In this document: piece after piece, positions 29,842 through 53,033 of the stretch
Layout: each line of letters begins with the position of its first letter
Position numbering within the stretch: the stretch's first letter is position 1
Assembly (NCBI GenBank): GCA_020631905.1
Contig: JACKGQ010000001.1
Span: 613,854 to 677,853, forward strand
Origin: Candidatus Nomurabacteria bacterium
Lineage (GTDB): Bacteria > Patescibacteriota > Saccharimonadia > Saccharimonadales > VXPC01
Reading direction: 5' to 3'
Length of the DNA: 64,000 nucleotides
Position numbers and translations under genes: made by a program
The notes under the pieces: generated by a model
The model's input: only the letters and a program-made list of their open reading frames with translations
What the model was told of the DNA's origin: nothing
Database searches by the model: none

Positions 29842-30111
29842 TTACCCCTTGGCCAACTTTCCACCATGGCTGCGGAACTTACGAGTTGGTGAAAATTCAC
29901 CAAGTTTGTGACCGACCATGTTTTCAGTTACGTGTACCGGCACATGTACTTTGCCGTTATGAACAGCTATCGTCTTGCCAACAAATTCTGGCGAAATTGT
30001 ACTGCTGCGGGCCCAAGTTTTGATGATTGTGCGGTCTTCTTTACCGAGTGCTGCAACTTTCTTAGCTAGCTTCGGATCAATGAATGGACCTTTCTTTAAG
30101 CTTCTACTCAT
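29842..30111 (-). CDS. rpsS: 30S ribosomal protein S19
   Basis: It contains [13 protein letters not shown] and [24 protein letters not shown]. Confidence 0.98.
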
Positions 30112-30114
30112 GAT

Positions 30115-30951
30115 TTATTTCCTCTTGCCGGCATGTCGGCTTCTTACAATAAACTTATTGGTTACTTTATTTCTAGCTCGAGTCTTGTAGCCAAGTGTCT
30201 TTTGACCCCAAGGAGTTGTCGGGGCTTTATAGCCCTTACCGCGTGCTTCACCACCACCGTGTGGGTGATCTACAGGGTTCATCACGACACCTCGTACTTT
30301 TGGACGTCGGCTCATGTGGCGACTACGTCCTGCCTTACCAAGCTTAACGTTTTGGTGTTGTTCGTTCCCAACAGCCCCAATATGAGCTTGAGCGTCTTCG
30401 TGAACTCGGCGAACTTCGCCGCTAGGTAACTTGACCTGAACATAACCTTCGTCTTTAGCAGCTAGCTGAGCCATAGCACCAGCGCTCCGAACCATCTGTG
30501 CACCGTTACCAGGGATCATTTCAACACTGTAAATAATCGTACCGGTTGGAATGTTTTTGAGTGGTAGGCGGTTTGCTAATTCAATAGGAGCATCTTGACC
30601 AGCACAAACTGTAGCACCTTGCTTTAAGCCTTTTGGCGCAACTATGTAATGGTACTTGCCTGTGCTTTCTTTTAAGCGAGCAATTCTAGCGCTTCTGGTT
30701 GGATCGTATTCGATATGTTCGACTGTGGCTTTAAAGCCTTCTGGTAGATTCCAGTTCATAACACGGTAATGACGCTTAGCACCTCCACCTCGTCTTCGCG
30801 AAGTAATAACGCCACGATTATTGCGTCCGGCTTGTTGTTTGCGTGTAGCAAGCAAGCTCTTAACAGGGCGTTTGGTGGTAATTGCACTCAAGTCTTGAGT
30901 TGTCATACCGCGTTGGCCTGGAGTTACTGGTCGGTGAGTTTTAATAGCCAT
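30115..30951 (-). CDS. rplB: 50S ribosomal protein L2
   Basis: It contains RGVVMNPVDHPHGGGEARGKG and is 278 aa long. Confidence 0.98.
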   Translation of the reverse strand: MAIKTHRPVTPGQRGMTTQDLSAITTKRPVKSLLATRKQQAGRNNRGVITSRRRGGGAKRHYRVMNWNLPEGFKATVEHIEYDPTRSARIARLKESTGKYHYIVAPKGLKQGATVCAGQDAPIELANRLPLKNIPTGTIIYSVEMIPGNGAQMVRSAGAMAQLAAKDEGYVQVKLPSGEVRRVHEDAQAHIGAVGNEQHQNVKLGKAGRSRHMSRRPKVRGVVMNPVDHPHGGGEARGKGYKAPTTPWGQKTLGYKTRARNKVTNKFIVRSRHAGKRK

Positions 30952-31274
30952 TACTGTTCTCCTCCTTCAGACATCATTTCTGCAAAAACAGGGATTTGAT
31001 CGCCATCTTTTAGGGTCACGTAGGCTTTTTTCATATCAGAACGTCGACCACTTAGGTAGCGACCACGTTGTTTGATTCGAATACTGCGCGCTTGTTTACC
31101 GTCTTGGACTAGGGTGCGCACATTAGTAACACTAACACCGTAAACAGCTTCGACAGCTTTTTTAATCTCAATCTTATTTGCACTTACTGGAACAACAAAT
31201 GCATATACATTGTGCTTATCGGCCTGCGTGTAGGCTTTCTCGCTGATTCTTGGAATAAGTTTAATATCGATCAT
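30951..31274 (-). CDS. rplW: 50S ribosomal protein L23
   Basis: It lies between rplD and rplB and contains P.ISEKA....KHNVYAFVV...ANK.EIK.AVE. Confidence 0.94.
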   Translation of the reverse strand: MIDIKLIPRISEKAYTQADKHNVYAFVVPVSANKIEIKKAVEAVYGVSVTNVRTLVQDGKQARSIRIKQRGRYLSGRRSDMKKAYVTLKDGDQIPVFAEMMSEGGEQ

Positions 31275-31276
31275 GA

Positions 31277-31909
31277 TTATTTACCTGCCAATCGTGCTTC
31301 GAGAGCTTCTACAGCTTTGCTAGTTAACACCACTAAGTCTGCGTCGAGTACGCGCCGTACATTCAGGTAGCTACTGGTTAGCAAACTGACATTGGCTAAG
31401 TTGGCTACTGCCCGACCAACAGAGTCGTTCTTGGTAGCATCGACAAGTACAACCGAGCCTTTTGCGCCAAGTTTGTCGACTAGCTTAGCTAGCTCGGCAG
31501 TTTTACCGCTTGTTGGTAAACTCTCGATAACAACTAATTTATTCGAGATGTTTTTTAAGCTTAAAGCTTGACGCATGGCTTCGCTCTTGGCTTTCTTATT
31601 AAGTTTGGTGGTGTAGTTTTCGTTACCCAAAGGGCCAAAAACGATACCACCGCCAGTCCAGATTGGGTTACGTGTCGAGCCAAATCGAGCTCGGCCAGTA
31701 CCTTTCTGGCGCCAAGGCTTGCGGCCACCACCGCGAACTTCACCACGACGAAGTGTTTTAGCTAGATTACGTCGCACGTCTTGGTTAAAGCCTTCGTAGG
31801 CTAGACGGACTAGTTCATGACTATTAACTTCTACATTGAATACGTCTTTATTTAGTTTAGCTGGCGAAGTAGCTTTTGCGCCTGTCTTTGTGTAAGTAGC
31901 TACGCTCAT
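31277..31909 (-). CDS. rplD: 50S ribosomal protein L4
   Basis: It contains [20 protein letters not shown]. Confidence 0.97.
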
Positions 31910-32526
31910 CTTCGGGCCTCCCTAACTACAACTGTGCTTTTATTTGGTCCAGGTACTGCACCTATAACACCGATAACGTTAAGTTCTGTATCAACTAGAG
32001 CTACACGAAGTCTTTCGGTAGTTACGGTAGTCCCACCATATTGTCCGGCCATTTTCTTGCCTTTAAAAATACGTTGTGGGTACATTGATCCAATCGAACC
32101 AACTTTACGTGTGTCGCCCTTACCACCGTGTGTTTTTCGTTGTCGATGGAAGTTGTGGCGTTTAATGGTACCAGCCCAGCCTTTGCCTTTGCTTGTTCCG
32201 GTTACATCCACGATATCACCAACAGCAAAAGAGTCGACTTTGACTTCGTCTCCAACCTTAAGGTCTTCGGGAAGTTCGTCGACTCGGACTTCTTTTAGTT
32301 TTGCAACTGGTTCGATACCAGCTTTTTTATAGTGACCAGCTGCCGCTTTGCCTGTATTCTTGGCTTTTCCAAAACCAAGCTGAATTGCTTGGTAACCATC
32401 TTTTTCAGTGGTTTTAACTTGGACTACCTTGTTAGGGCTAGCGGAAAGCAAAGTCACGGCAACCATCGAGCCGTTGTCATCAACGATCGAGGTCATACCG
32501 AGTTTTGTACCAAATATAGCTTTCAT
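31906..32526 (-). CDS. rplC: 50S ribosomal protein L3
   Basis: Translation MKAIFGTKLGMTSIV starts at the ATG at 32526, with the downstream motif FKGKKMAGQYG. The track's start at 32550 adds 8 non-conserved residues. Confidence 0.94.
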   Translation of the reverse strand: MKAIFGTKLGMTSIVDDNGSMVAVTLLSASPNKVVQVKTTEKDGYQAIQLGFGKAKNTGKAAAGHYKKAGIEPVAKLKEVRVDELPEDLKVGDEVKVDSFAVGDIVDVTGTSKGKGWAGTIKRHNFHRQRKTHGGKGDTRKVGSIGSMYPQRIFKGKKMAGQYGGTTVTTERLRVALVDTELNVIGVIGAVPGPNKSTVVVREARR

Positions 32527-32731
32527 AGCTTTCTCATCACTGTGCCGCATAAAAACATATGCGTGAAACAGTAAGGAGTGTCTCCTTGGATTTAGTTTAT
32601 AAACAGCTGTTTTATATCGCGAGCTTTGGGCATAAAAAGTACTTGGTGTCTGGTGGTTTCATCTGTTATTGTCTAGCAAATGACCTTCCGGCTCACCAAG
32701 CCTTGATGCTTGCTTGATATTTAACTAGTGC

Positions 32732-32760
32732 ATTTTAGCAAAAATGTTAACAGTAGTCAA
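32732..32760 (-). promoter_or_regulatory. sigma70-like promoter for rplC and the downstream S10-operon genes
   Basis: On the minus strand TTGACT (32755-32760) is followed by a 17-nt spacer and TAAAAT (32732-32737). It starts 4 nt after the stop of the 206-aa orphan. Confidence 0.6.
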
Positions 32761-32763
32761 CAC

Positions 32764-33384
32764 CTATGCTGCCATTGGCAAGCCATCTTCTTGGGCTGCT
32801 CGAGAAACACGGAGAACTTCAGCAAACCGAACCCCACGTGCATAGTTTTCTGGCCGAGTTTCATCCGGCATAGTTAATACGCCATAAAGTCTCATTCTTG
32901 GGATGAAATTACGATAATAGCCAAGATCTTTCGCTGTCGCACGTATAGGTTCAAGATGTCTGCTAAAACTTGCCACACTAAGATACTCTAGCTCGGCTTG
33001 ACCCAGTATTGTTAGATCACGCACATGAAGCCGCGCAGGTACATAATTTAAGGCGGTCTCGGCTGTGGCATGAATCGGTGTTAGTAAAGTTCTTGCTTTA
33101 TCCGGTAAAAATTGATTATCAAGCGCAAGCCCAAGCTGTTTATGTTGAGTCCATACTTCACTAACAAATTCTACCTCCGCTACTTCGACTGTAGTAGACA
33201 GTTTTCCGTGCTGGGATTCTTCGATAATCGCTCTGGCAAGTACTTGGGCTAAGTTTTCGGAAACTTTACCTAATGCATCTAAGCTACCACTCCGACATAC
33301 ATTCTCTAGTCTATCCATTAAGGTCTTGAAGCGTGCCATTCTGTCTCTGACCACTTCCATCGCTGGGGTTAAGGTTTCTGCCAT
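32764..33384 (-). CDS. orphan hypothetical protein inserted between rpsJ and rplC
   Basis: The 206-aa ORF is co-oriented with the operon. No motif recognised, and composition looks more GC-rich than the neighbours. Confidence 0.65.
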
Positions 33385-33422
33385 CTTAAAACTCCTTTCC
33401 CACCATGTTTAAATAAAACTTC

Positions 33423-33746
33423 TTACATCTTGATTTCGGCGTCGCAGCCAGCCGGCAACGATAGGTTCATCAAACTATCAATGGTCTTGGGGCTTGGCTC
33501 GGTGATATCGATAAGTCGCTTGTGGACGCGCATTTCGAACTGTTCTCGGCCTTTTTTATAAACATGTGGGCTTTTCACTACGGTGTAAGTAGTTTTACGG
33601 GTAGGTAGTGGCACTGGGCCAACAATTTTTGCCCCAGTACGCAAGGCCGTATCAACGATCTGCTTAGCAGATTGGTCGATTACTTTGTGATCGTATGCTT
33701 TTAAGCGAATTCGAATTCGCTGAGTTGGAACATTGGCCTCGGCCAT
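33423..33746 (-). CDS. rpsJ: 30S ribosomal protein S10
   Basis: Translation [34 protein letters not shown] starts at the ATG at 33746, which has a GAAAGGA Shine-Dalgarno. Confidence 0.96.
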
Positions 33747-33870
33747 AGTTTTTTTCCTTTCAATAATCTGAGATCTAAGATCCAAGATCTGTTTAGAGTG
33801 TAACATCGTCACGAGCCTATAGAGAGGTTATCGTAAAGACTTTTAGTCACTCTGATTAATAACATATTTT

Positions 33871-33899
33871 ACTATATCTGTTTTTAATGGTTTAGTCAA
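33871..33899 (-). promoter_or_regulatory. sigma70-like promoter for rpsJ
   Basis: On the minus strand TTGACT (33894-33899) is followed by 17 nt and TATAGT (33871-33876). A ~120-nt leader with palindromic AGATCT hairpins follows. Confidence 0.6.
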
Positions 33900-33911
33900 T
33901 CTAGCTGCAGC

Positions 33912-35366
33912 TTAGCCGCGTCGAACTGCACCTAAACCAAGTGATCTTTCCAACTGGGCCATATCACCTCGATAATGAATGTCGACTACAGTTATCGTTT
34001 GCTCTGTATAAGTAAAAGTGACCCGCGTATGTCTAGCGGTTTTTGAGCGTGTCGGGACTCCAACTGCGTCTTGTGGTTTCAGACCGTATACTGGCAACAT
34101 TTTGCCGTCGATTTCAATCGTGTAATGATGTTGTTTTACACCCCTAACCGGCCCATTTGAAAAATCGATTTTTCTCAACCACTCAACAGCTGCAACCAGA
34201 TCTTCGTATAGTAGCCTTGTGCCTCTGTATTGATTCACATAATTTTCGATTAGCTCTTCAAGGCCTAATTTTTCTGAAGCAACCTTAACCTCTCTAAGCG
34301 GACACGGCTCTTGTACATCTTGGCTTTCTGCTTGCTCTGCTTTTAGCTCGTCATTAATTTCGGCGGCCCTAGTCTTTATTTTCAATCTTCGTGGTACTGG
34401 TATGTTTGTGTTGTTACTAAACATGCGCAACGAGTGTCGTTCGTAATGCAATCTCAGCGATTGGATTACTTCTTCAACACTCCGGCCAGTAGATCGAATA
34501 TTGCCAAGTTTTTTACGCCCTTCTTCGATAAAATTACCTAGCCGGTTTAATAGATCATTTCTGTAACTTAGGGCTAATTCTTGAGCTTTTGGGGGCAAGT
34601 TAATCCGACCAGAAGCTACTGCTTCGATTACCATACGCCGATCAACTTCAGCAAACGCCTGTGCGACTCTGACAGCGAACTCGACTTCACTAGCCACTAC
34701 ACCACTATTGGCTTCTTGTTCAATCTGATGAGCTAAGATTTCACAGTCAAATTCGCCCGCTTGATATGCACTAACTATAGCGTCTAAACGATTTGCCTTT
34801 AGCCAAAGTTCTGAGAGTACGAGCCCGGTTACTAACTTCCTCTGCATGGTTTTCTCGGTTGTATTATTTGTTTTATACATCAACAGTTCTACCAGCTGCC
34901 AGTCTGTAACCTTTTCGGCCTCTCTAGCGATCGCCTGCCCAAACTCTCGAGTACTTGCTTCGGGAGTTAAGTCAGAGGCAATTTTAGCCACATAAGCCTC
35001 GGTTGCCTCAGAATCTAGTAGCGGCTCGGTGCCAGTCAACTCCGCTATCGACCTAACTACGTCATACAGAGTTTCTGAAATTGTTGCCTCAAATGCCTGG
35101 CGATCATCTAGTAAGGCGTCTAGTTCGTACAAAGCTGCCGTTATTGCGTCTAGATCTTTTCTGCCGATATCTACATTTGGTGTTGATCGGAGCATGGATT
35201 GAGCATTCGATCGAGAAGTAGCAGATCGTAGGCTGCTTCTAGCGTGTTCTGTCGTACTCTCGTTTTCTGGGAGTAGAATCTTTAGCGAAGGAAACATAGA
35301 TAACATACGTTCCAAAAACGGAGTACGTAAAGGGTCATCAATTATCTCTACTTGCTCAAAAGTCAT
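33912..35366 (-). CDS. orphan 484-aa protein inserted between tuf and rpsJ (helical N-terminal region; C-terminal ~100 aa with a RelE/YoeB-like pattern, speculative)
   Basis: A long uninterrupted ORF sits after the tuf terminator, with an AAGGTG Shine-Dalgarno. The C-terminus ...RHTRVTFTYTEQTITVVDIHYRGD resembles R.x.R[LV]x[YF]....[IV]x[IV]..[IV].HY of RelE/YoeB-type toxins. Confidence 0.7.
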   Translation of the reverse strand: MTFEQVEIIDDPLRTPFLERMLSMFPSLKILLPENESTTEHARSSLRSATSRSNAQSMLRSTPNVDIGRKDLDAITAALYELDALLDDRQAFEATISETLYDVVRSIAELTGTEPLLDSEATEAYVAKIASDLTPEASTREFGQAIAREAEKVTDWQLVELLMYKTNNTTEKTMQRKLVTGLVLSELWLKANRLDAIVSAYQAGEFDCEILAHQIEQEANSGVVASEVEFAVRVAQAFAEVDRRMVIEAVASGRINLPPKAQELALSYRNDLLNRLGNFIEEGRKKLGNIRSTGRSVEEVIQSLRLHYERHSLRMFSNNTNIPVPRRLKIKTRAAEINDELKAEQAESQDVQEPCPLREVKVASEKLGLEELIENYVNQYRGTRLLYEDLVAAVEWLRKIDFSNGPVRGVKQHHYTIEIDGKMLPVYGLKPQDAVGVPTRSKTARHTRVTFTYTEQTITVVDIHYRGDMAQLERSLGLGAVRRG

Positions 35367-35435
35367 ACACCTTAGGATATATTACGACATTTCATCATCC
35401 AAGTCCGATTCCAAAAAATATGTAGTAAATTAAAC

Positions 35436-35461
35436 TAAAAAGAAGCCCGTGAACGAGCTTC
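35436..35461 (-). terminator. intrinsic terminator after tuf
   Basis: On the minus strand the stem is GAAGCTCG-ttca-CGGGCTTC, followed by TTTTT. Confidence 0.75.
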
Positions 35462-35482
35462 CTTTTAGTTGTTAAGAAAGAC

Positions 35483-36667
35483 TTATTTGTCAATCTTGGT
35501 TACCACACCAGCACCTACAGTTCGGCCACCTTCGCGAATAGCGAAATTTAGACCCTGATCCATAGCGATTGGTTGAAGTAACTTAACCTTAAAGGTTACA
35601 GTGTCACCAGGCATAACCATTTCTTTGTCGGCAGGTAGCTCGACTTCGCCAGTTACGTCGGTAGTTCTAAAGTAGAACTGTGGCTTATAACCTTTAAAGA
35701 ATGGTGTGTGACGTCCACCTTCTTCTTTAGTTAAGATGTAGACTTCGGCATCAAACTCGGTATGTGGAGTGATTGAACCTGGTTTGCATAGTACCTGACC
35801 TCGTTCGATATCTTCGCGTTCAACACCTCTTAGAAGTACACCAGCATTGTCGCCAGCCTTACCTTGGTCGAGGTTTTTCTTGAAAGCTTCGATACCGGTT
35901 ACAACTGTTTTCTGAGTTGGTCGAATACCAACAATTTCAACTTCGTCGTTGAGGTTTAGAACACCAGCTTCGATACGACCAGTAGCCACAGTACCACGGC
36001 CTTTAATCGAGAATACGTCTTCGATTGGCATTAGGAATGGCTTGTCTAGGTCGCGTACAGGTTCTGGAATGTAGTCATCCATAGCATGTACAAGCTCCAT
36101 GACTGCGTCCATAGCAGCTTCGTCGCCTTCGACAGCTTTTGTAGCTGAGCCCTTGATGATTGGGCAGTTTTCGTCGAAGTCATACTTAGCTAGCAGCTCA
36201 CGAACGTCCATTTCGACGATTTCTACGAGCTCTGGGTCGGCCAGGTCCATCTTGTTTAGGAAAACAAGAATGCTTGGCACACCAACTTGTTTGGCAAGTA
36301 GCACGTGTTCACGAGTCTGTGGCATAGGGCCATCTGCAGCTGACACAACCAGTACGGCGCCATCAATCTGGGCAGCACCAGTAATCATGTTTTTTACATA
36401 GTCAGCGTGACCAGGCATGTCGACGTGTGCATAGTGGCGCTTTTCGCTCTCGTACTCTTGGTGAGATGTAGCGATGGTTATACCACGAGCTTTTTCTTCT
36501 GGAGCATTGTCGATTTGATCGTATGCAACAGGTTTGTTAACAGCGCTAGGTAGTCGCTTAGAAAGCGTCATTGTGATTGCTGCTGTAAGGGTTGTCTTAC
36601 CATGGTCAACGTGTCCCATAGTACCGACGTTGACGTGAGGCTTAGACCTGTCAAAATTGTCTGCCAT
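35483..36667 (-). CDS. tuf: elongation factor Tu
   Basis: It carries [18 protein letters not shown] and NKMD motifs and is 394 aa long. Confidence 0.99.
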
Positions 36668-36764
36668 TTATTGGTTCCTTTCAAATGGTAGTTAATATTA
36701 TTGTTTCGCGATCCATATTGCACTTGAAGCACAAGAGCAAAGCCCTCACGCGAGTTACCGAAGT

Positions 36765-36793
36765 AGTATACAGAATATTTTTTGCGGCTTCAA
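36765..36793 (-). promoter_or_regulatory. sigma70-like promoter for tuf
   Basis: On the minus strand TTGAAG (36788-36793) is followed by 17 nt and TATACT (36765-36770). Confidence 0.55.
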
Positions 36794-36823
36794 GACCTAA
36801 TCTAGTTGAAATCTGGCAAGACA

Positions 36824-37465
36824 CTATTGAATCGTGAATAAATCAACTTCGAACGACCAGCCATCTCTTTTGCCAGTTAGGTTTACGGCACAATCAGCGC
36901 TCGAAACAGTTATCTTTTCAATGCCTACTGTTGCCGATTGGATCGCCGAACCTCCTAAAGACATCCAACCATGTGGATCTCTTTCTAAAGCTACTGGGTA
37001 GGCCGGAGTACAGCCATTATACTCGAGCACTGTGCCTTCGGTGGCTACTAAAACATCTCTTTGCCAACGTCTTTCATTAGTGTCAGTCACCACCTGTAAC
37101 ATGCCTCTTGCTGCTAGGCTTGTTAACTCAAGGTTCTTAACGAACAATCGATTTAGGGGTATAGCCAAATCGTGTCCTCGTAAATCTCTTTCTAGTGCTA
37201 ATTCTTCGACTAAAGTCGCCAACTCGCTCAGTTTTGATCCAAAGTTTACACCTATACCAATGCCTTCTTTGACTATCTGCCAGTTGATGCCATAGTTTAG
37301 ACTAATATAGCTTATTAGATCATACTGCGACATAGTTATTTGGGCTTCTCTAACTGCTCGAAGCACATTTATAGCCTGAACAGCCGACAAGTAATAGGCA
37401 TCTCCATATAATAACTTACCGTCTTGATCGCAAGCGTAAACTCTTTCTGGTGCAAATTGATTCAT
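36824..37465 (-). CDS. orphan hypothetical protein between fusA and tuf
   Basis: The ORF is 213 aa from the ATG at 37465, which has an AAGAGGT Shine-Dalgarno. The track's 225-aa version starts at 37501. No motif recognised. Confidence 0.65.
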   Translation of the reverse strand: MNQFAPERVYACDQDGKLLYGDAYYLSAVQAINVLRAVREAQITMSQYDLISYISLNYGINWQIVKEGIGIGVNFGSKLSELATLVEELALERDLRGHDLAIPLNRLFVKNLELTSLAARGMLQVVTDTNERRWQRDVLVATEGTVLEYNGCTPAYPVALERDPHGWMSLGGSAIQSATVGIEKITVSSADCAVNLTGKRDGWSFEVDLFTIQ

Positions 37466-37620
37466 CTTTAACCTCTTTCTTTTATGAGGTTCAAAGTGCA
37501 ATCGGGCAAAATCTAGGATGTTTGGACTACTTCAAACCTCTTTGGCAATAACTATTTCGGCTTGGTTTACTAGATCCACACAAAGCTTATCCTTTGTTTA
37601 ACTTACGATTATTTTATCAT

Positions 37621-37658
37621 AAAAAGAAAAAAGCCCCGGATCCTGGTTGGATCGGGGC
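37621..37658 (-). terminator. intrinsic terminator ending the noncoding unit downstream of fusA
   Basis: On the minus strand the stem GCCCCG(A)TCC / GGATC-CGGGGC has 10 bp, one bulge and a 5-nt loop. It is followed by TTTTTTCTTTTT. Confidence 0.8.
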
Positions 37659-38386
37659 ACCAGAGCTGGTATATCCAGTTGGATTTTAAAAGTGAGTTTG
37701 GTCGAGGGCTGCCTACCCCCGACCATCCGGTCTTGAGCTGCAGCTCGCAACGCACCACCGTTCGTCTCTGATTATCCAACGAGCTTGTCGTTTTCCAATT
37801 GTCAACGTTGATGGTTCACTTGCTGAAGTCACACGGTTTCACCAAGTTTTTCCGACCTCGGCTATTCGTCTTCAGACGGGTTCTATCTTGTCCTTCTCAC
37901 GCAATTTGGGTCGTCCGAACAACCACATTCTGCGTGCCGCTTCGCCAGCAGCGGTACGACATATTGCGATCCACACCAGATTCGGATCCAGTGCGGCGCA
38001 GAGGCATGACTACTTCCACGTTTTATACGTGTGCCTGACGGCAAGGTGAGCCCTAACCGAACAACATCTAGCGGCCTCACGCCAGATGCATCATTACACC
38101 AACATTCCGAGACAGACTTACACACCCATCCGTTAGGATGCGATTTTCAGACGGAACTTTTACCTCTGGCTCTAACAAACGAGGAGCAATCCGGACTGGT
38201 CTAGCCCTGGTCACAACTCGCCTGAGAGAACTTTTAGTGTCGGTGCTTGCCAAACACAGTGATGACCTGTCACTGTGCAGAGCGTAAAATGTTCTAGATT
38301 AACAAAATAGACCACTATACGCAATGCACAGTCTGGTTATACTGTGTTGATTGTTAAGTACGTTCAATCAATAAATCGATTGAACA
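37628..38386 (-). ncRNA. candidate large (~760 nt) structured noncoding RNA of unknown class
   Basis: The unit has its own TTGACT-17-TATAAT promoter and a strong terminator. No ORF over 80 aa occurs in any frame despite ~50% GC. Many local hairpins are present (e.g. CACAGTGA-7-TCACTGTG, GGTCGGGGG-7-CCCTCGACC, CACTGGAT-ccga-ATCTGGTG, CATCC-taac-GGATG). Confidence 0.5.
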
Positions 38387-38392
38387 AAAACT

Positions 38393-38421
38393 ATTATACA
38401 CTACCCCCGAGTATTAGTCAA
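38393..38421 (-). promoter_or_regulatory. near-consensus sigma70 promoter immediately after the fusA stop
   Basis: On the minus strand TTGACT (38416-38421) is followed by 17 nt and TATAAT (38393-38398), with TG directly upstream of the -10. Confidence 0.7.
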
Positions 38422-38423
38422 TA

Positions 38424-40514
38424 CTAATTTTTGCGTGAATTTTTAGCAACAATCGCTTCGGCAACATTGCCGGGGACCTCTTGGTAGTTGTGAAGTTCCA
38501 TGCTGCTAGCTGCGCGACCTTGAGTCATCGAACGTAAGTCGGTTGTGTAGCCAAACATTTCGGCAAGCGGCACATAGGCATCAACAACCTTGGCCCCAAA
38601 CCGGTCGTCCATGGCTTCGACACGACCACGACGGCTATTAATATCACCAATCACATCACCCATAAACTCTTCGGGTGTTACTACTTCGACTTTCATAATT
38701 GGTTCGAGCAAGATTGGATTGGCTAGTTTAGCCGCCGCCTGAAAGCCCATGCTACCGGCGATCTTAAAGGCCATTTCGCTCGAGTCGACTTCGTGGTAAG
38801 AACCATCGTAAAGAGTCGCCTTAATGTCGACCATTGGGTAGCCAGCAACTACACCACTAGTCATGGCTTCTTGCACACCGGCTTTAACTGCACTTATGTA
38901 TTCATTTGGAACTACACCGCCTTTGATGGCATCAACAAACTCAAAACCTGCACCAGCTTCTTGGGCATCGAGTCTTATCCAGACATCACCATATTGACCA
39001 CGCCCACCAGACTGACGGACGAACTTGCCTTGGGCTTCTGAACCACTCTTTTTGATAGTTTCACGGTAAGCAACCTGTGGCTGACCGATATTGGCCACCA
39101 CCCCAAACTCGCGTTTCATCCGATCGACCAGAATTTCTAGATGTAGCTCACCCATTCCACTTATAATTGTCTGGTTTGTTTCATCATCGACACTAACACG
39201 GAAAGTCGGATCTTCTTCGGCAAGTCGCTGCAAGGCATTACTCATTTTTTCTTGATCGGCTTTGGTAGCAGGCTCAATCGCAATACTTACAGGTGGTTCT
39301 GGGAACTCAATGCTTTCGAGTACAATTGTATGATTTACGTCTGTTAATGTGTTACCTGTAGTCGTGTTTTTTAAACCAACGATAGCCGCAATGTCGCCAG
39401 CCGTAACTTCTTCGAGATCTTCGCGTTTGTCGGCAAACATGCGTACGATACGGCCAACACGCTCTTTCTCGCCAGTAGCGTTATTGATTACATAACTGCC
39501 GCTCTTTAAGACACCAGAATAAACTCGCACAAATATCAATTTACCTACAAATGGGTCGGTGGCAATTTTAAAGGCTAGGCCGGCAAAAGGTTCGTCATCG
39601 CTCGGCTTGCGCTCGATCTCTTCGCCTGTTTTTGGGTGAGTACCCCAGTTTGAGCCACGATCGATCGGGCTTGGTAGGTAGTCGGTCATTAGGTCGAGGA
39701 CTTTTTCGACGATTACACCGCGGCCGTCACCACCAGTGGCAACATAAAACTGGCCACTCAAAGTAGCTGTACGGATAGCTTGTTTGATCTCGGCTTCGTT
39801 CAAGCCCTCTTCGCCTACTTCTAGGTAGCGTTCGAGCATGGCTTCGTCTTCGGCTACGGCATTTTCGATCAGTAAGCTACGATATTTTTTAGCCTCGTCG
39901 ACCATATCGGCAGGCACTTCGGCTTCGATAAGTTCTTTGTCGGCGAACTCCTTATAGGTATAAGCCTTCATAGTGATTAAATCGACCACACCGTTGATAC
40001 TTTGCTCAAAGCCAATAGGCAAATGAACAGGGAAAATTGCTTTGCTTAGACGTGCGTGCATGCTCTCAAGGCTTTTATAGAAATCACCACCAGTTTGGTT
40101 GATTTTGTTAATAAAACAGACTCGCGGTACGTTATATTTGTTCGCCTGTCTCCAAACTGTTTCTGTCTGAGCTTCGACACCCATTTTGCCATCAAATACA
40201 ACTACAGCACCATCTAGCACTCGCAACGAGCGCTCAACTTCGACTGTAAAGTCGATATGGCCTGGCGTATCGATAATGTTAATCTTCTTACCTTTCCAGT
40301 AGCAGGTGACCGCAGCCGAAGTAATCGTGATTCCACGTTCGCGTTCTTGCTCCATCCAGTCGGTAGTGGTTTCACCTTCGTGGACGGCACCAATCTTATG
40401 CTTTAAGCCTGTACGGTGCAAAATGCCTTCTGTAGTGGTGGTTTTACCGGCGTCGATATGGGCAATAATGCCAACGTTGCGGACGTCTTGGAGCTGATAT
40501 TTTTGTTGAGCCAT
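38424..40514 (-). CDS. fusA: elongation factor G
   Basis: It carries [20 protein letters not shown] and NKIN G-motifs and is 696 aa long. Confidence 0.99.
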
Positions 40515-40616
40515 GATATTTAAGATGTCTTCCCTATTATGTTACTTGTTTTTAGCCAAGAGGAGCAATACCTACAAGGCGTTTCTAGATTATCTTACAC
40601 TATTGTTAGCAATAAG

Positions 40617-41006
40617 TTAAGACTTAAAACCAGTTACAGGTCTACGGACAATCAAGCGCATATCATCGTTAAGGCTTTCTGTATCACCTATTGCCAGAGA
40701 AAGTATTCTACCGGTTGGCAGATTGCAGAATGTCCCATAACCTAACTCTGGTGGATTCGACTGATTCTGACGATTGCAGGTAGTGTTTTTGAGCCCGTTT
40801 AAAGATGTTTCGAGTTCGAGCATGAGTGCGTGTTTTCGCCGTGCTAGTGTTTCAGGAGAAAGCAACTGTTCGACTCTTTCAGATTCCTGAACTGCGATAG
40901 CTGCCTCGTAAACTTGAGGTAACTTACAACCAACACACGCTAATAACTTTATTTTAGTCAGAACATCGCGCATTGCTTTCGGAGTCGGTGCTTCACCTAT
41001 ATTCAT
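40617..41006 (-). CDS. orphan hypothetical protein between rpsG and fusA
   Basis: The 129-aa ORF is preceded by TTGCTA-18-TATATT only 8 nt from the ATG (near-leaderless), with no Shine-Dalgarno. No motif recognised. Confidence 0.45.
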   Translation of the reverse strand: MNIGEAPTPKAMRDVLTKIKLLACVGCKLPQVYEAAIAVQESERVEQLLSPETLARRKHALMLELETSLNGLKNTTCNRQNQSNPPELGYGTFCNLPTGRILSLAIGDTESLNDDMRLIVRRPVTGFKS

Positions 41007-41058
41007 ATCGTAAATAATATATCAGCTAGATTGCAAGTTTAGCAATAGTTAAACTTAA

Positions 41059-41694
41059 TTAGGCTTTATTAAATACAGATCTTATTTTTACCACGACACT
41101 GCGAATACCTCGGGGGACAGTCGGTTGGTTTTGGAGCGCACTTACTTGCTGGCAAGTTTCTGCGTATAAGCTTCTTTCAGCACAGAGCTCTGGATGCAGC
41201 CTAGCGGCGCTTGTATTGCCGTGCATGATAGCTTGCGCCCGAACTCGACCATCACGTGCAAGTTGTTCCGAAAATCCATATGTTTCGCCTTCTCTAAAGT
41301 CGGCCAATGTAAAAACTCGGCTGGTTGCCACTCTCGCCGGACAGACAAAATTTGGCCTATTCGGGCATCTAAGTAGTGGGTCATACGCATCTTTACCTAA
41401 AAATGCAAAGTTTCCAGTCTTGAGCAGGTTAAGGTGAGTTTGTATGCCTTGCTGAAAATCTCGACTGCACGCATGGTAGCCGATGGCGTATATTAGCCTT
41501 TCACGACCATCATTATCGGTCGGATCATCAACTACTTCGCCAGTGAAAGGGTTGTACGCACACAGGCTTTTTTCGACCAATTCTCTAGCTAGCCTAAAGT
41601 AGATATCGGTTGCAGATTCACCTACGGTTTGCTTTGGTGCCGCGAAAAATACTTCACCAATATTGGTCAGTCTGTCTGATACTCTTTTGGCCAT
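41059..41694 (-). CDS. orphan Cys-rich hypothetical protein translationally coupled to rpsG
   Basis: The 211-aa ORF has an ATG overlapping the S7 stop as TAATG (41692-41696), the same architecture as genuine r-protein pairs here. It has 6 Cys. No motif recognised. Confidence 0.65.
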   Translation of the reverse strand: MAKRVSDRLTNIGEVFFAAPKQTVGESATDIYFRLARELVEKSLCAYNPFTGEVVDDPTDNDGRERLIYAIGYHACSRDFQQGIQTHLNLLKTGNFAFLGKDAYDPLLRCPNRPNFVCPARVATSRVFTLADFREGETYGFSEQLARDGRVRAQAIMHGNTSAARLHPELCAERSLYAETCQQVSALQNQPTVPRGIRSVVVKIRSVFNKA

Positions 41695-42173
41695 TACGAC
41701 CTTGCAAAATGAGCGAAGGCGCGGTTGCTTTCGGCCATCTTATGAGTGTCTTCTTTTTTCTTGACGGCTGTACCAGTATTGTTGAAAGCATCAACGATTT
41801 CTAGGCTCAAGCGCTTAGCCATCGGGATTCCTTTGCGACCGCGTGCAGCAGCGACGAACCACATTAGGGTTAGGTGAGTTTGACGTTGGCCCTTTACCTC
41901 AAAAGGTATCTGGTAGTTGGCACCACCGACTCGACGTGACCGAGTCTCGAGACTTGGCTTAACGTTGTCGAGAGCTTTGATCAAGACTTCGAGAGGATCT
42001 TTTTCTTTTAATGTTTTGGCAGCCTGCTCCATAGCTTCGTAAACTAGCTTTTCGGCTAACTGCTTTTTACCGTGCAACATAACTTTGTTAATTAATCTTT
42101 GAACCAACACAGATTCGTACATTCGATCTGGTTTGATATCTCGGACTAGGCTTTTAGTTACTTTTCTTGGCAT
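41694..42173 (-). CDS. rpsG: 30S ribosomal protein S7
   Basis: It contains MPRK......R.I.PD..Y and ...AM.LV.AAR... Confidence 0.97.
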   Translation of the reverse strand: MPRKVTKSLVRDIKPDRMYESVLVQRLINKVMLHGKKQLAEKLVYEAMEQAAKTLKEKDPLEVLIKALDNVKPSLETRSRRVGGANYQIPFEVKGQRQTHLTLMWFVAAARGRKGIPMAKRLSLEIVDAFNNTGTAVKKKEDTHKMAESNRAFAHFARS

Positions 42174-42495
42174 GGAAACTTCCTTTATTTGCGTGAAGAA
42201 TTTGAGAGCGGTAATTCGTTGTATCTCTGCGGCAAGATTTACTTCTACGTACTACTTGTACGCATCCGAATCTGTGCTCGTGATCCATACAAATTACCCT
42301 TGGCTCAAATGCATCACTTTACATCAAGAAATGATGGTTATTAATGATTTCTCTATAATCAAAGATCTGGGATCTATGATCGAATAGATTATCTAGGCTC
42401 TAGATTCGACAATTCTGAGTTCTACACTAGAACTACTGAAGTTATGTCTAGGCTTAGACCCTAGCGTAAGAGCGGTTAAGCTCAAACGTCAGTCT

Positions 42496-42756
42496 CTAAG
42501 CTGCTGTCTCTGGATCAATCTGGGTAGTGCGCTCTGCTAACCTTGCTTCGACCACTTTTAGCTGACAGATGCCGGAGCACCTTAGGGCACTAACTCCCCT
42601 TCTGGTGTCGACATACAATGTGTTAGCGAGTTGCTGCTTGGCTTCGGCGGAAATAGTCGGTGCGAAAGAGCACTGTTCTCCGGTATCCGGGCAAACCCCA
42701 AGTAAATAGGCTGTATTAGCGTTTGTGACTGCAATTGGTCCGGATTCGCGCGACAT
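42496..42756 (-). CDS. orphan small Cys4 protein abutting the rpsL stop
   Basis: The 86-aa ORF has an ATG (42754-42756) immediately following the S12 TAG (42757-42759). Cys spacing is C-x7-C ... C-x3-C. No motif recognised. Confidence 0.5.
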   Translation of the reverse strand: MSRESGPIAVTNANTAYLLGVCPDTGEQCSFAPTISAEAKQQLANTLYVDTRRGVSALRCSGICQLKVVEARLAERTTQIDPETAA

Positions 42757-43164
42757 CTAGGCTTTCTTGGCGCCGTATTTACTACGAGCACTTTTACGAT
42801 CGGAAACACCCTGAAGATCTAGGTGACCACGCACAACGTGGTAGCGGACACCCGGCAAATCTGGCACACGACCACCACGGATCATCACTACGGCGTGCTC
42901 TTGTAGGTTGTGGCCTTCGCCAGGGATGTAGGCCCAGACTTCGTGACCATTGACTAGTCGGACTCGGGCAACTTTGCGGAGGGCTGAGTTTGGTTTTTTA
43001 GGAGTTTTTGTAGTTACTTTTACGCAAACACCTCGTTTGAATGGTGCCGACTTTTCGTAAACAGTTGTTGTTAAACTGTTGGTAACCCGATGAAGTGCGG
43101 GTGATTTTGACTTAGCTTTAGTGGCCTTTCTTGGCTTTCGAACTAACTGATTGATCGTAGGCAC
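42757..43164 (-). CDS. rpsL: 30S ribosomal protein S12
   Basis: It contains [28 protein letters not shown] and [15 protein letters not shown]. Confidence 0.99.
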
Positions 43165-43226
43165 GCTAATATGTCTCCTGCTTAATTTGTTTGATTGTCA
43201 TTCGATTGCCTATCTTAACATTGAGA

Positions 43227-46200
43227 CTATGCATTGTCAACCTCTGTCATATTGGCAAACTCTAATTCAGACTCTTCGGGCTGAACACCTGTTCCAACTG
43301 GTATTTTACGTCCCAAAATCACGTTTTCTTTTAAGCCTCTTAGGTGGTCAATCTTGCCACTTGTAGCTGCGCTAATCAGAACTCTAGTTGTGTCTTGGAA
43401 ACTAGCTGCCGATAAGAAGCTGTCGCTCCAAGTACTAACCTTAGTAATTCCAAGCAGTAACTGGTTAAACTGAGCTGGCTGCTTGTTGTGCGCGACTAGT
43501 TCGGCATTGGCTGCTACAACCGCAGCTTTGCTGACAATATCACCATTTACAAACTCTGTGTCACCGGCTTCTTCGATCTGAACTCGGCTAAACATTTGGC
43601 GGATAACTACCTCTAAATGTTTATCGGATACGTGTCGACCTTGGAGTGCAAACACACGACTAATTTCGGTCAAGATATAGCGTTGAGTGGCCTCGACACC
43701 TTTAAGCGCCATTAATTCTTGGAGATTAATCGAACCGCTAGTCAGTCGATCACCAGCCTCTACAGAGTCACCTTCGCTTACTAGTACCTGCTTGAATCCT
43801 GGGATTTCATAGCGGGCAGTGCTTTCGGTGCTTGGAGTAAGAATCAGTTTGTCTTTGGCTACTTCGACCAATCCGCTGGCAGGTGCAGTTAATGGTCGCT
43901 CGCCTTTTTTATCACTAGCGATGACATCACCAGCTAGTACGGTGCTACCACTAGCAACTTGAGCTTTTCGACCTTCTAAAGCGACCTCGACTGGTTGAAC
44001 ATCTGCGCCAGTCACCTGGACTACATAATGATCGCCATCTTCCCAGACTTTTACCTTACCCGAAACCTGACTTAAGTAAGCCATACCTTTTGGTGCGCGG
44101 GCTTCAAACAACTCTTCGACACGATTTAGTCCAGTCGAAGTTTCATCGGATATGCTAGCTGCACCACCGGTGTGTTTAGAGTCTAGAGACAGCTGTGTAC
44201 CTGGCTCACCAATACTCTGGGCGGCAATCACACCTACAGGGTGATTAATCGCTACTAAGTGACCGGTTGCTGGGTCGATTCCATAGCTTTTTGCAGGGAT
44301 TCCATTTAGATTTGGAGTCGAAAGTACGCTCTGAATTCTAACAGTCTTGATATTTTCATCTTCGTGGATGGCATCGGCCATTTCTTTTGTTACTAGATCA
44401 CCATGCTTGCCATGACCTTTAACGTCTTCGGCAAGGTAACGGCCAACTAATCGACTACCGAACATAATACCTATGTCTTCGGAGTCTGAGCGGTACATTG
44501 GGAAACCTTTGTCGTCAAGGCTGTCGTCTTCGATTGTAAAGACATCCTGGCTAACGTCGACTAGACGGCGTGTCAGGTAGCCTGAGTCTGCGGTACGTAG
44601 GGCGATATCAACCAGTGTCTTACGTGCACCACGTGTTGAAATGAAATATTCCAATGTTGGCAAACCATGTAAGAAGTTGCCATTAACAGGCAGCTCAATG
44701 GCTCGGCCAGTAGTATCTGCAAGCACGCCAACAGAGCCGGCGACCGATTTTACCTGTCCAGCGTTACCACGAGCACCAGATAATACAGCCACAGACATAG
44801 CTGTATCTGTCTTACTGAACTGTTCGGTCACGATTGCTTGAATCTGGTTGTTGATATCAAACCAGTTATCAACCGTTAAGCGATAGCGTTCGTCGTCGGT
44901 AATGAAGCCATGTTCGTACTGTTCGGAAATTTTGGCTGTTTTCTCGGCACCTTCTTTTAGTTTTGCGTCGACACCTTCGATTTCTGGGAAGTCGCCCATA
45001 CCCATCGATAGTCCGGAGCGAGTGGCATATTCAAATGCCATGTTTTTTAGATCGTCGGCAATTTTTGCAGTAGTTTCAGAGCCATACATATCGTAAACAA
45101 GTGCCATAACTTTCTGGATGTTCTTCTTGTTCATCACCTCATTTTGATATGGGAAATCTTCTGGGAATAGCTCGTTGAACAGCACCCGACCAAGTGTAGT
45201 TTCATGAACTTGACCACGGAATCGTATAGTAATTGGCGACTGCCATTGGATTATTTCTTGATCTCTGGCAAAAATTGCTTCTTCGATACTCGAGTAAGCA
45301 CGTCGCTTATGTTCAGGATATTTATCGTAGGTCATGTAATATGCGCCTAGAACGATATCTTGTTCGATGTGTAAGATTGGTGAGCTGTCGGCTGGGTGAA
45401 GCAAGTTCTTGCTAGCAACCATTAACTCACGGGCTTCTTTCTGGGCAGCGTCGGATAGTGGTAGGTGAACAGCCATCTGGTCACCATCGAAGTCAGCGTT
45501 GAAGCCTTTGCAGACTAGCGGATGGAGCTGAACGGCTTTACCTTCGACCAAACGAGGCCGGAAAGCCTGGACACTCAAACGGTGCAAGCTCGGTGCGCGG
45601 TTAAGCAGTACATATTTGCCTTCGATTACGGCGTCTAGGGCGTCCCAAACTTCGGTTTCGCCTGATTCAATCATTCGAGTTGCACTCCGAATGTTGTGCG
45701 CTTGCTCTAGTTCGATCAATCGACCGATTACAAATGGCTTGAAGAGTTCTAGGGCCATCATCTTAGGCAGACCGCATTCATCCATACGCAGTTCTGGGCC
45801 AGCTACAATTACTGAACGACCAGAGTAGTCAACACGCTTACCGAGTAAGTTTTGGCGGAAACGACCTTGTTTACCTTTAAGTAGGTCGGCTAAACTCTTG
45901 AGCTTACGGCGCTGACCGTTGGTGCTAACCGAGCGTCCAGCTCGCGAAGCGTTGTTGTCGATCAATGCATCGACTGCTTCCTGAAGCATACGCATTTCGT
46001 TGCGACGAATAACTTCTGGGGCCTTAAGCTCGTTGAGTTTCTTGAGACGATTGTTACGGTTAATTACGCGGCGGTAAAGATCGTTAAGGTCACTGGTGGC
46101 AAATCGTCCACCGGTTAGTTGAACCATCGGACGTAGATCGGGTGGGATGACTGGCAAAACTGTTAAGCACATGTCGACAGGGGAAATACCAGCGCGTTTC

Positions 46201-47048
46201 ATACTCTCGAGTGTTCGGAGTCGCTTAAGAATCTTTTTCTTGCGTTGGCCTTTTGTGGTTTCGGCTTCGGCACTTAAATCTGTAATCAGTTGATCAACAT
46301 CAATACTTTCAAGCAGTCCTTTTATGGCTTCGCCACCCATAGAAACTTCGATTAGCTCGGCATACTCGTCTGGTAATTTGCGATAATCAGTCTCGTTGAT
46401 CATTGCGTGAAGCTGCAAGCTGTTTAGCTGTTCGCGAGCAACTTCGAAGTTTTCGGCTAACTCGTCGAGCTCTTTGGTGCGGGCTTCGGCTAATGCCTTC
46501 ACGTCTGCGTCTTCGGCTTCGGCAGCTTTTTCGTAGCGAATTTTAACAGCAGCTTGGGCGGCTTCGTACTCGGCTTCTACGTCGGCCAACATAGAATCGC
46601 GCTTTTCCAGATCGACTTTTAAGATCAAATATGAGGCAAAATAAACAATTCGCTCTAAGTTTTTAACTGTCATATTGGTGATTTGACCAATCGCACTTGG
46701 CGTACCTCGCAAGAACCAGATATGTGTAACTGGTGCAGCTAAAGTAATATGCCCCATTCGTTCGCGACGGACAATCGACTTTGTGACTAGTTCGCCGTTT
46801 TTATCGACAGCTGCTTCACGTGAACGGATGCCTTTGTATTTGCTGTCGTTTGGATTGATATCTTTAACTGGTCCAAAAATCTTTTCGCAGAATAGACCAT
46901 CCTTTTCTGGTTTTTGGGTCCGGTAGTTGATGGTTTCAGGTTTAAGCACCTCGCCATGCGACCAGTCTAAGATGTTGTTTGCACTAGCAACTGCTAAGCG
47001 GACGGCGTCGAAGTCGGAAAAACTTGTGCCTTGCGTAACGTTTCTCAT
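43227..47048 (-). CDS. rpoC: DNA-directed RNA polymerase beta' subunit
   Basis: It carries the NADFDGDQM catalytic motif. The start is the ATG at 47048, which has a GAGGAGG Shine-Dalgarno within the rpoB 3' end. Confidence 0.98.
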   Translation of the reverse strand: MRNVTQGTSFSDFDAVRLAVASANNILDWSHGEVLKPETINYRTQKPEKDGLFCEKIFGPVKDINPNDSKYKGIRSREAAVDKNGELVTKSIVRRERMGHITLAAPVTHIWFLRGTPSAIGQITNMTVKNLERIVYFASYLILKVDLEKRDSMLADVEAEYEAAQAAVKIRYEKAAEAEDADVKALAEARTKELDELAENFEVAREQLNSLQLHAMINETDYRKLPDEYAELIEVSMGGEAIKGLLESIDVDQLITDLSAEAETTKGQRKKKILKRLRTLESMKRAGISPVDMCLTVLPVIPPDLRPMVQLTGGRFATSDLNDLYRRVINRNNRLKKLNELKAPEVIRRNEMRMLQEAVDALIDNNASRAGRSVSTNGQRRKLKSLADLLKGKQGRFRQNLLGKRVDYSGRSVIVAGPELRMDECGLPKMMALELFKPFVIGRLIELEQAHNIRSATRMIESGETEVWDALDAVIEGKYVLLNRAPSLHRLSVQAFRPRLVEGKAVQLHPLVCKGFNADFDGDQMAVHLPLSDAAQKEARELMVASKNLLHPADSSPILHIEQDIVLGAYYMTYDKYPEHKRRAYSSIEEAIFARDQEIIQWQSPITIRFRGQVHETTLGRVLFNELFPEDFPYQNEVMNKKNIQKVMALVYDMYGSETTAKIADDLKNMAFEYATRSGLSMGMGDFPEIEGVDAKLKEGAEKTAKISEQYEHGFITDDERYRLTVDNWFDINNQIQAIVTEQFSKTDTAMSVAVLSGARGNAGQVKSVAGSVGVLADTTGRAIELPVNGNFLHGLPTLEYFISTRGARKTLVDIALRTADSGYLTRRLVDVSQDVFTIEDDSLDDKGFPMYRSDSEDIGIMFGSRLVGRYLAEDVKGHGKHGDLVTKEMADAIHEDENIKTVRIQSVLSTPNLNGIPAKSYGIDPATGHLVAINHPVGVIAAQSIGEPGTQLSLDSKHTGGAASISDETSTGLNRVEELFEARAPKGMAYLSQVSGKVKVWEDGDHYVVQVTGADVQPVEVALEGRKAQVASGSTVLAGDVIASDKKGERPLTAPASGLVEVAKDKLILTPSTESTARYEIPGFKQVLVSEGDSVEAGDRLTSGSINLQELMALKGVEATQRYILTEISRVFALQGRHVSDKHLEVVIRQMFSRVQIEEAGDTEFVNGDIVSKAAVVAANAELVAHNKQPAQFNQLLLGITKVSTWSDSFLSAASFQDTTRVLISAATSGKIDHLRGLKENVILGRKIPVGTGVQPEESELEFANMTEVDNA

Positions 47049-47049
47049 T

Positions 47050-50625: not shown

Positions 50626-50871
50626 TAATTACCGATGCTCCTTAATTTAGGTTTAGAGTTATAAATGTTACTGACAACAAAAAACCCACTTCGAGATTAA
50701 TTGTTGTAGTTTTGGCGCCGAAGTTATCTGTTGCAAGCTAGAGATGCATGTTTTAGGCACACGCAAGCAAGGCTTGAATTACTCTACTTCTTGGAGTTGA
50801 GTTTGATAGATGTCTGAACATTAGTCAAGCAAATACGTTGTGTAATTATCTACGTTCGTCCGAATATGTTT

Positions 50872-51489: not shown

Positions 51490-51537
51490 ACTATCAGCAT
51501 ATCACAAACTTAGCACTCAGCAAACTAGACTGCTAGA

Positions 51538-51738
51538 TTAGTGTCTGGACTTTGGTTTTCGGGGATATAGCGCAGCTGATCCGAGGAAGCATGGTATGGC
51601 AAAAGCTGCTAACACTGGTAAGTGTTCACTTAAGGCACCTACAACCGCAACTACTCCGAGCCCGGTAAATAGACCAGAAACTTGAGCTCTCTCTGAAGGG
51701 TCCTCGATTGATCGTAAAAATGATTTTTGCTTAGCCAT
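51538..51738 (-). CDS. small (66-aa) two-helix membrane protein translationally coupled to tig
   Basis: Its ATG overlaps the tig stop as TAATG (51736-51740), and the core is hydrophobic. No motif recognised. Confidence 0.5.
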   Translation of the reverse strand: MAKQKSFLRSIEDPSERAQVSGLFTGLGVVAVVGALSEHLPVLAAFAIPCFLGSAALYPRKPKSRH

Positions 51739-53021: not shown

Positions 53022-53033
53022 AACCGCCACACT

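Follow-up and report, generated by a model that had tools for sequence, protein, structure and literature searches.

How can the str/S10 gene cluster of a bacterium keep its gene order in full and yet have every one of its junctions filled with open reading frames (ORFs) that resemble nothing else? This question is raised by a 64,000-nt stretch of DNA (hereafter the window) from a Candidatus Nomurabacteria bacterium (Patescibacteriota, Saccharimonadales; contig JACKGQ010000001.1 of assembly GCA_020631905.1, positions 613,854 to 677,853), where the five junctions of the series rpsL-rpsG-fusA-tuf-rpsJ-rplC hold six ORFs, here named O86, O211, O129, O213, O484 and O206 after their lengths in amino acids, together with one candidate structured RNA. 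The adjacencies rpsL-rpsG-fusA-tuf and rpsJ-rplC are textbook cases of gene order frozen across bacteria. The answer that we favor, with modest confidence, is evolutionary rather than mechanistic: the junctions would be permissive, separately promoted slots with a fast turnover, holding fast-evolving accessory genes.

The order rpsL-rpsG-fusA-tuf-rpsJ-rplC is intact, with all genes on one strand, i.e. the minus strand of the window, on which all features of the locus described below are also located. In the first junction, rpsL (S12, PF00164; 43164-42757) is followed by O86 (42756-42496), an 86-aa ORF with four cysteines, and by a 322-nt structured spacer (42495-42174) 5' of rpsG (S7; 42173-41694). 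O211 (41694-41059) and O129 (41006-40617) separate rpsG from fusA (EF-G; 40514-38424), after which come an ORF-free stretch (38423-37502) containing the candidate RNA unit (37621-38421), O213 (37465-36824), situated downstream of the terminator of that unit, and tuf (EF-Tu; 36667-35483). O484 (35366-33912) occupies the junction between tuf and rpsJ (S10, 107 aa; 33746-33423), and O206 (33384-32764) the one between rpsJ and rplC (L3; 32550-31906). The junctions measure 583 (S12|S7), 1179 (S7|EF-G), 1756 (EF-G|EF-Tu), 1736 (EF-Tu|S10) and 872 nt (S10|L3). A preliminary description, made by reading the sequence, had reported extra co-oriented material in all five junctions, and the ORFs and spacers are indeed there, as are the two joints to which it drew attention: the ATG of O86 stands immediately 3' of the TAG of S12 and in the same frame, and the start of O211 overlaps the stop of S7 as TAATG. 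As in canonical str/S10 operons, gene order and orientation are fully kept and the S10/spc cluster is tight from rplC to secY, with genes that overlap or nearly abut. The differences lie in the promoter-like sites found before individual genes and in the lengths of the junctions, which have medians of 65-140 nt in bacteria outside the candidate phyla radiation (CPR), compared with 583-1756 nt here.

That this layout is a chimera of assembly or binning is hardly credible. Short-read assemblies do break around tuf and O484, but for every junction there is at least one other independent assembly that matches at 100% identity, and for most there are several, the contigs coming from Logan (SRR12358675, SRR12358676 and SRR17907852), NCBI (GCA_020428525.1) and ENA (several WANG18 samples and other records). 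A Logan contig spans tuf-O484-rpsJ-O206-rplC, an NCBI contig runs from rpoC to tuf, and for O206 six contigs, obtained from several samples, agree completely. Two metagenome-assembled genomes (MAGs) list the six orphan proteins as 'hypothetical protein', in one case on a 770-kb contig, and look-ups of the exact proteins returned only 100% identical contigs and two near-identical variants. Since identical sequence was obtained in independent assemblies from several samples, mis-assembly, including the chimeric joining at the junctions for which a check had been proposed, is excluded. In the NCBI short-read MAG one contig ends within O484 at window position 35348 and the next begins at about 34375, while Logan and the window are continuous; this break (window 34371-35348) may reflect strain heterogeneity.

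Is the layout peculiar to this genome? For a synteny comparison of the five junctions, as suggested in the preliminary description, 80 loci around fusA were fetched from species representatives, and a junction of at least 400 nt was counted as expanded. In 22 related Saccharibacteria, 37 of 83 junctions were expanded, distributed as 0/18 for S12|S7, 8/18 for S7|EF-G, 13/20 for EF-G|EF-Tu, 9/16 for EF-Tu|S10 and 7/11 for S10|L3. The corresponding total was 18/79 in other Patescibacteria (0/19, 2/20, 13/14, 1/14 and 2/12, in the same order) and 4/114 in non-CPR bacteria (0/36, 0/36, 2/19, 2/12 and 0/11). The assumption of the preliminary description that these adjacencies are tight in this lineage therefore does not hold. 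Ten relatives had four junctions observed; three of these were occupied in five of the ten, and all four in none. The rpsL|rpsG gap does not exceed 304 nt across 73 other genomes, versus 583 nt in the window. The genome thus shows a clade-wide trait in its most extreme form rather than a one-off event, and we found no description of this slot pattern in the literature. The closest species representatives share 77-78% identity in EF-G; two genome and two metagenome scans revealed no relative closer than 78% over the whole of EF-G, and a scan with its last 230 aa reached 73%.

The contents of the relatives' slots are unrelated to the window orphans and to one another. On either strand, these slots harbor genes for CTP synthase, lysyl-PG synthase, class-V aminotransferase, alpha-amylase and nucleotidyl transferase, as well as M48 peptidase, VanY, PBP5, PAP2, NUDIX, DUF520 and DUF998 proteins, next to many co-oriented ORFs of 80-240 aa without a Pfam match. 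The speed of change can be read from the loci L002 and L003, which are 93% identical in EF-G, 96% in S7, 94% in S10 and 91% in EF-Tu; their ORFs in the slot after S10 share 30% and 57% identity, and those in the fusA|tuf slot are not alignable. For the 30% pair no match was found at the DNA level and the similarity of the proteins is kept (E = 2e-17), from which it follows that slot ORFs can be real, extremely fast-evolving genes. At the distance given by 78% identity in EF-G such genes would be unrecognizable, which is enough to explain the orphan status of those in the window. A profile of the post-S10 proteins of L002 and L003, when compared with O206, yielded nothing.

Further observations concern the same slots in other genomes. 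A conserved family of small hydrophobic proteins (about 90-115 aa, no Pfam match) stands directly 5' of rplC in several Saccharibacteria (L002:15064-15372, L003:15042-15314, L004:15969-16238, L011:18430-18777 and L022:17716-18063) and is absent from the rpsJ|rplC slot of the window. Directly 5' of tuf, a family of about 95-140 aa is conserved in Patescibacteria other than Saccharibacteria (L025, L026, L028, L029, L032, L033 and L036), one member of which gives a faint, sub-threshold match to the Phd/YefM antitoxin (E = 0.006). Both junctions flanking fusA in L017 (9460-9530 and 13100-13230) carry, in direct and inverted copies, an element of about 57 nt rich in CTACAGAA units, which may be a small repeat or mobile element residing in the slots. 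DUF998 membrane proteins occur in the fusA|tuf slot of L009 (12056-12676) and L012 (6277-6876), and the window has a weak DUF998 match at 5272-5991 (minus strand), a case illustrating how ordinary genes that have moved within a genome can become slot cargo.

Where, then, does a slot end and the next conserved gene begin? On the minus strand, the four promoter matches with the highest scores (10-11 of 12) are all intergenic, in a region of which intergenic DNA makes up about 19%. One of them is found upstream of rpsL (43240-43212), the gene that follows the rpoC ORF (47069-43227). The other three begin at most 15 nt past a stop codon and precede rpsJ (TTGACT-17-TATAGT, 33899-33871, directly past the O484 stop), rplC (TTGACT-17-TAAAAT, 32760-32732, directly past the O206 stop and followed by a leader of about 180 nt) and the RNA unit, respectively. 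A weaker promoter-like site precedes tuf (36793-36765). Conservation of DNA among relatives is confined to the last 50-150 nt 5' of tuf and rplC. The tuf leader (36705-36812) has conserved counterparts in L007 (nhmmer E = 4e-6) and in the metagenome locus L091 (E = 3e-7), and it may be a regulatory 5' untranslated region. The promoter-like sites after the inserts, combined with the conserved DNA before the genes, lead to a model in which a conserved gene is followed by a variable slot and then by the leader or promoter of the next gene. The inserts not joined to a preceding gene had earlier been described as sitting between promoters and terminators of their own; this clearly applies to the ORF-free unit only, while otherwise the promoter-like sites after the inserts appear to serve the next conserved gene.

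Are the six ORFs members of known families? No matches were obtained for any of them in Pfam, NCBIfam, PHROGs or PADLOC (the last searched at E<=0.1), in line with the preliminary description, which had recognized no family motif, and the profile searches assigned none of the ORFs to a housekeeping family. A Pfam match is absent in 6/6 junction ORFs versus 6/30 of the other window ORFs. For O86, O211, O129, O213 and O206, HMMER was run over the full set of 1.84 billion cluster representatives, and each retrieved itself alone. For O484, searched less exhaustively, pattern scans of contigs from genomes, metagenomes and viruses turned up no relatives, nor did tblastn against phages and plasmids or a comparison with PDB sequences, and a word search with its C-terminus returned only itself. 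No paralogs of the six were found within the window, and none of the orphans in the 22 related Saccharibacteria, including the nearest relative (EF-G 78%). Positional orthology with the relatives' slot ORFs was not seen with phmmer --max or hhalign, nor did tblastn detect pseudogene remnants of the relatives' slot genes in the slots of the window.

Without homologs, the ORFs might for the most part be non-functional, i.e. decaying gene remnants or chance open frames in expanded spacers, which we consider unlikely. In four junctions the longest open frame (206-484 codons) beats 500 of 500 shuffles, and in the S12|S7 junction the 86-codon frame is within chance (p = 0.26, 500 shuffles). Under a codon model trained on 42 other window genes and scored in bits per codon, each ORF scores higher in its annotated frame than in the other five, as opposed to two truly non-coding stretches that score negative in every frame. 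O484 reaches +0.18, O213 +0.17 and O206 about +0.13 to +0.14, followed by O129 and O211 at +0.03 to +0.05 (O211 +0.05) and O86 at -0.07. Taken together, the orphans score below the background genes (Mann-Whitney p = 0.0012), much like the other non-ribosomal accessory genes of the window. Shine-Dalgarno (SD)-like motifs at the right spacing precede O213 (AAGAGG), O206 (a strong AAGGAG) and O484. O129 has no SD motif and a promoter-like site (41045-41016) that stops 10 nt before its ATG, so its mRNA may be leaderless. The ORFs are moreover intact and identical in contigs from several samples, and the L002/L003 pair, with its protein similarity kept in the absence of a DNA match, likewise speaks against decayed or chance frames. 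On the other side stand the low codon scores of O86, O129 and O211, the chance length of O86, which was called by NCBI and skipped by the Logan gene caller, and the population variants described below. O211, O129, O213, O484 and O206 are probably real genes, judging from these signals, and O86 is doubtful as a gene.

All six products are predicted to be soluble and without a hydrophobic segment. For O484 a low-confidence model predicts a largely helical protein with a small alpha/beta region at its C-terminus; single-sequence AF2 gave pLDDT values of 37 for O484 and 39 for its C-terminal 131 aa, and these models are unusable and too poor for a fold search. With orphan, i.e. taxonomically restricted, genes the inserts share a lack of homologs in very large databases, a modest length, a weaker codon adaptation and a location in presumably transcribed intergenic DNA; the exception, also with respect to genes born de novo, is O484, which at 484 aa is long for a young gene. 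By their sequence, the six inserts would count as orphan genes in that they combine missing homologs with a coding signal, the latter weak in O86.

The composition of the inserts bears on their origin. Per gene, O211, O129, O213, O484 and O206 have 42.5-46.5% GC, versus 43.4% in the window and 45-49% in the flanking ribosomal genes, and these five keep the native GC1>GC2>GC3 pattern. GC is raised only in O86 (52%) and in the core of the ORF-free unit (about 51%), and the earlier estimate of about 55% GC in inserts against about 43-47% in their flanks was thus not borne out. Host-derived cargo, one of the origins proposed in the preliminary description, is at odds with the native GC and the missing homologs. 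Elsewhere in the window, three GC-rich islands (55-61% vs 43% for the window) are located at 55873-57616 and 59874-60734 on the plus strand; two encode Clp_N-domain proteins and the third a 286-aa ORF without a Pfam match and with a low codon score, and from their composition they look like foreign, possibly high-GC host-derived DNA. Because islands of this kind were detected, foreign-looking inserts in the str region would have shown up as well.

The population is nearly clonal and variation is scarce. One ENA contig differs at 4/1225 positions, all of them in O213, where two bases give L35S, one gives E40D and one a stop at codon 148 (E148stop); the flanking 583 nt are unchanged, and neither the RNA unit, over 525 nt, nor the tuf leader shows a difference. 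In a second contig rpsL has two synonymous changes and O86 a D24S that involves two bases. These few variants, in counts too small for a test, point to relaxed or diversifying selection and to a dispensable O213. Together with the absence of synonymous changes in the orphans, the O213 nonsense variant is what the idea of non-functional inserts can draw on; decay is hinted at for O213 only, in that one variant contig.

Could the inserts instead be lineage-specific ribosome- or translation-associated factors, co-expressed because they act on ribosomal proteins (r-proteins) or elongation factors? Such a role would fit with O86 and O211 being joined to S12 and S7 like true r-protein pairs (TAG-ATG and TAATG), with the co-orientation of all inserts and the lack of a terminator between most of them and the r-protein genes, and with their identity across several samples. 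Yet a core partner in translation is expected to be conserved at least clade-wide, so that the absence of the inserts from the 22 related Saccharibacteria, and of five of them from 1.84e9 proteins, counts against it, as do the lack of Pfam and NCBIfam matches, isoelectric points of 4.8-8.8 compared with 9.9-11.1 for the neighboring r-proteins, codon scores below those of the background genes, the premature stop in one variant of O213, and the use of the same slots for metabolic and cell wall genes in the relatives. We regard a translational role as very unlikely.

If the inserts were selfish or defence cargo, for instance modules for toxin-antitoxin or anti-phage functions sheltered by an indispensable locus, the junctions would be comparable to the hot spots of defence islands; we hold this to be improbable. 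The rapid turnover of contents from genome to genome between fixed core genes would be expected of such cargo, and the population changes in the orphans are all amino acid-changing. The order of promoter, RNA, terminator and ORF in the fusA|tuf junction recalls type III toxin-antitoxin loci, and the order alpha-alpha-beta4-alpha at the C-terminus of O484 presumably recalls RelE/ParE, a lead only, taken from the low-confidence model (pLDDT 39) and without Pfam or PDB sequence support. Speaking against defence cargo are the complete lack of PADLOC, PHROG, Pfam and NCBIfam matches, AF2 models that are unusable (pLDDT 37-39), the absence of an integrase or transposase and of flanking direct or inverted repeats, the native GC, the lack of any phage, plasmid or viral-contig match, an RNA unit without tandem repeats, and the predominance of housekeeping enzymes in the slots of the relatives.

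A mobile element, i.e. an insertion sequence, island or prophage, was rejected, as neither transposase or integrase nor terminal repeats, target-site duplications or tandem arrays were found, the GC is native and phages, plasmids and viral contigs gave no matches. A type III toxin-antitoxin system formed by the RNA unit and O213 was rejected too. Similar to ToxIN-like loci, a promoter, a non-coding RNA (ncRNA) and an intrinsic terminator are followed by an ORF of about 200 aa; unlike them, the RNA unit lacks tandem repeats (TRF detected no array in 37502-38423) and O213 matches no ToxN/AbiQ model, nor anything in Pfam or PADLOC. Measured against genomic hot spots and variable islands as generally known, the slots share fixed core flanks, cargo that differs between relatives, many genes of no assigned function and fast turnover. 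They differ in having no integrase, tRNA site, repeats or known defence family, in their native GC, and in a cargo of one or two small ORFs each, placed inside the most conserved translation cluster. Among the readings offered in the preliminary description, that of lineage-specific genes is borne out in the sense of strain-specific singletons, while the ribosome-associated, host-derived and selfish or defence readings each gained no positive evidence, and may still apply in part.

The ORF-free unit of about 760 nt noted earlier between fusA and tuf is likewise present, as a unit of about 766 nt with its own promoter and terminator. The promoter, TTGACT-17-TATAAT (38421-38393), scores 11/12 and begins two bases past the fusA stop; the predicted transcript starts at about 38386, and a GC-rich terminator hairpin (37660-37633) is followed by a U-tract (37632-37621). 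The sense strand has a minimum free energy (MFE) of -283 kcal/mol, with z = -8.5 versus dinucleotide shuffles and -6.4 with a second shuffle set, and the antisense strand folds more weakly (-256 kcal/mol, z = -4.0). With GC taken into account, its folding energy is 3.0 sd lower than that of 106 window segments of the same length. No ORF in it starts with ATG, and the codon model scores it as non-coding in each of the six frames. A scan with Rfam 15, which includes OLE, GOLLD, ROOL, HEARO, RNase P, tmRNA, 6S, group I/II introns and r-protein leaders, gave no match at E<=1 in 30000-48000, the unit included, with only tRNAs reaching the gathering score in the whole window, and neither 160 related loci nor phages yielded a similar sequence. 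With large ncRNAs such as OLE, GOLLD, ROOL, HEARO and raiA it shares the length of about 770 nt, a very stable and strand-specific predicted fold, a promoter and terminator of its own and a GC above the genome average; it differs in matching no Rfam family at E<=1, and is known from one sequence, compared via Rfam alone. These predictions make the unit a promising candidate for a discrete structured RNA, of singleton sequence. The hairpin-rich spacer between rpsL and rpsG, earlier put at about 320 nt, is also structured (322 nt, MFE z = -4.7), and no promoter-like site was found in it.

ORF-poor fusA|tuf spacers in other Patescibacteria and Saccharibacteria are also much more stably folded than their shuffles, i.e. 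L030:12086-13095 (z = -11), L017:12089-13462 (z = -7), L063:5382-6438 (z = -5) and L015:12074-12738 (z = -4). None of the four has an Rfam match, and there may be recurrent RNAs of no recognized family at the fusA|tuf junction. A more far-reaching proposal would have the junctions be highly transcribed cradles of gene and RNA birth and loss, with the transcript of about 766 nt as the first of a new class of large structured RNAs, possibly working with O213, and the L030 and L017 spacers as its analogues. This we think quite unlikely.

According to the reading of fast-turnover slots, the str/S10 order would have been kept while the cluster was cut into short units and ceased to be one tight operon, with rpsL, tuf, rpsJ and rplC each retaining a sigma-70-like promoter or leader of its own. 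The slot would be the stretch from the stop codon of a conserved gene to the promoter or leader of the next gene, and it would be permissive. Across Saccharibacteria such slots would be filled, emptied and rewritten very quickly, with contents ranging from housekeeping genes to small, soluble, fast-evolving genes. In this genome the four commonly used slots and the otherwise never-used rpsL|rpsG slot would all be occupied, most likely by real but dispensable accessory genes of native composition, which we infer to have arisen by fast divergence rather than by fresh insertion or de novo birth. Translational coupling to S12 and S7 could account for the expression of O86 and O211, O129 may be expressed from its own promoter, and O213, O484 and O206 would be by read-through together with their own SD sites, while the fusA|tuf slot would additionally carry a discrete, strongly folded transcript.

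Several observations weigh against this account of the slots. The absence of homologs fits fast divergence, fresh acquisition and de novo birth alike, and with the nearest relatives as distant as 78% in EF-G the history of the slots in this lineage is out of sight. The total of promoter matches is not above that in shuffles (20 vs 16.7), and the codon scores of O211, O129 and O86 are at or under the bottom of the native range. The orphan events in the population, four amino acid-changing or nonsense and none synonymous, are as compatible with relaxed constraint or decay as with adaptive change at a fast rate.

Two other places in the window were also conspicuous. In the rif region an adjacency is broken as well, as rplJ and rplL are not upstream of rpoB; instead, 50626-55614 (minus strand) holds ClpP, trigger factor, a 211-aa ORF without a Pfam match, HisRS and a SLOG/LOG-like protein. 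A segment of low GC (33.5%) at 7801-8569, which adjoins tRNA-Trp and overlaps a 143-aa ORF without a Pfam match (8418-8849), folds 2.8 sd better than its GC predicts.

For Saccharibacteria, and in part for Patescibacteria in general, the finding means that the order of these genes survives while the junctions between them have turned into slots of fast turnover. This would offer a natural system in which to follow the erosion of an operon and what becomes of genes that land in highly expressed loci, and it may have a bearing on gene birth in the reduced genomes of episymbionts. It also provides a concrete candidate for a large structured RNA of a new kind, and cautions annotators that in this clade orphans are commonly found between r-protein genes.

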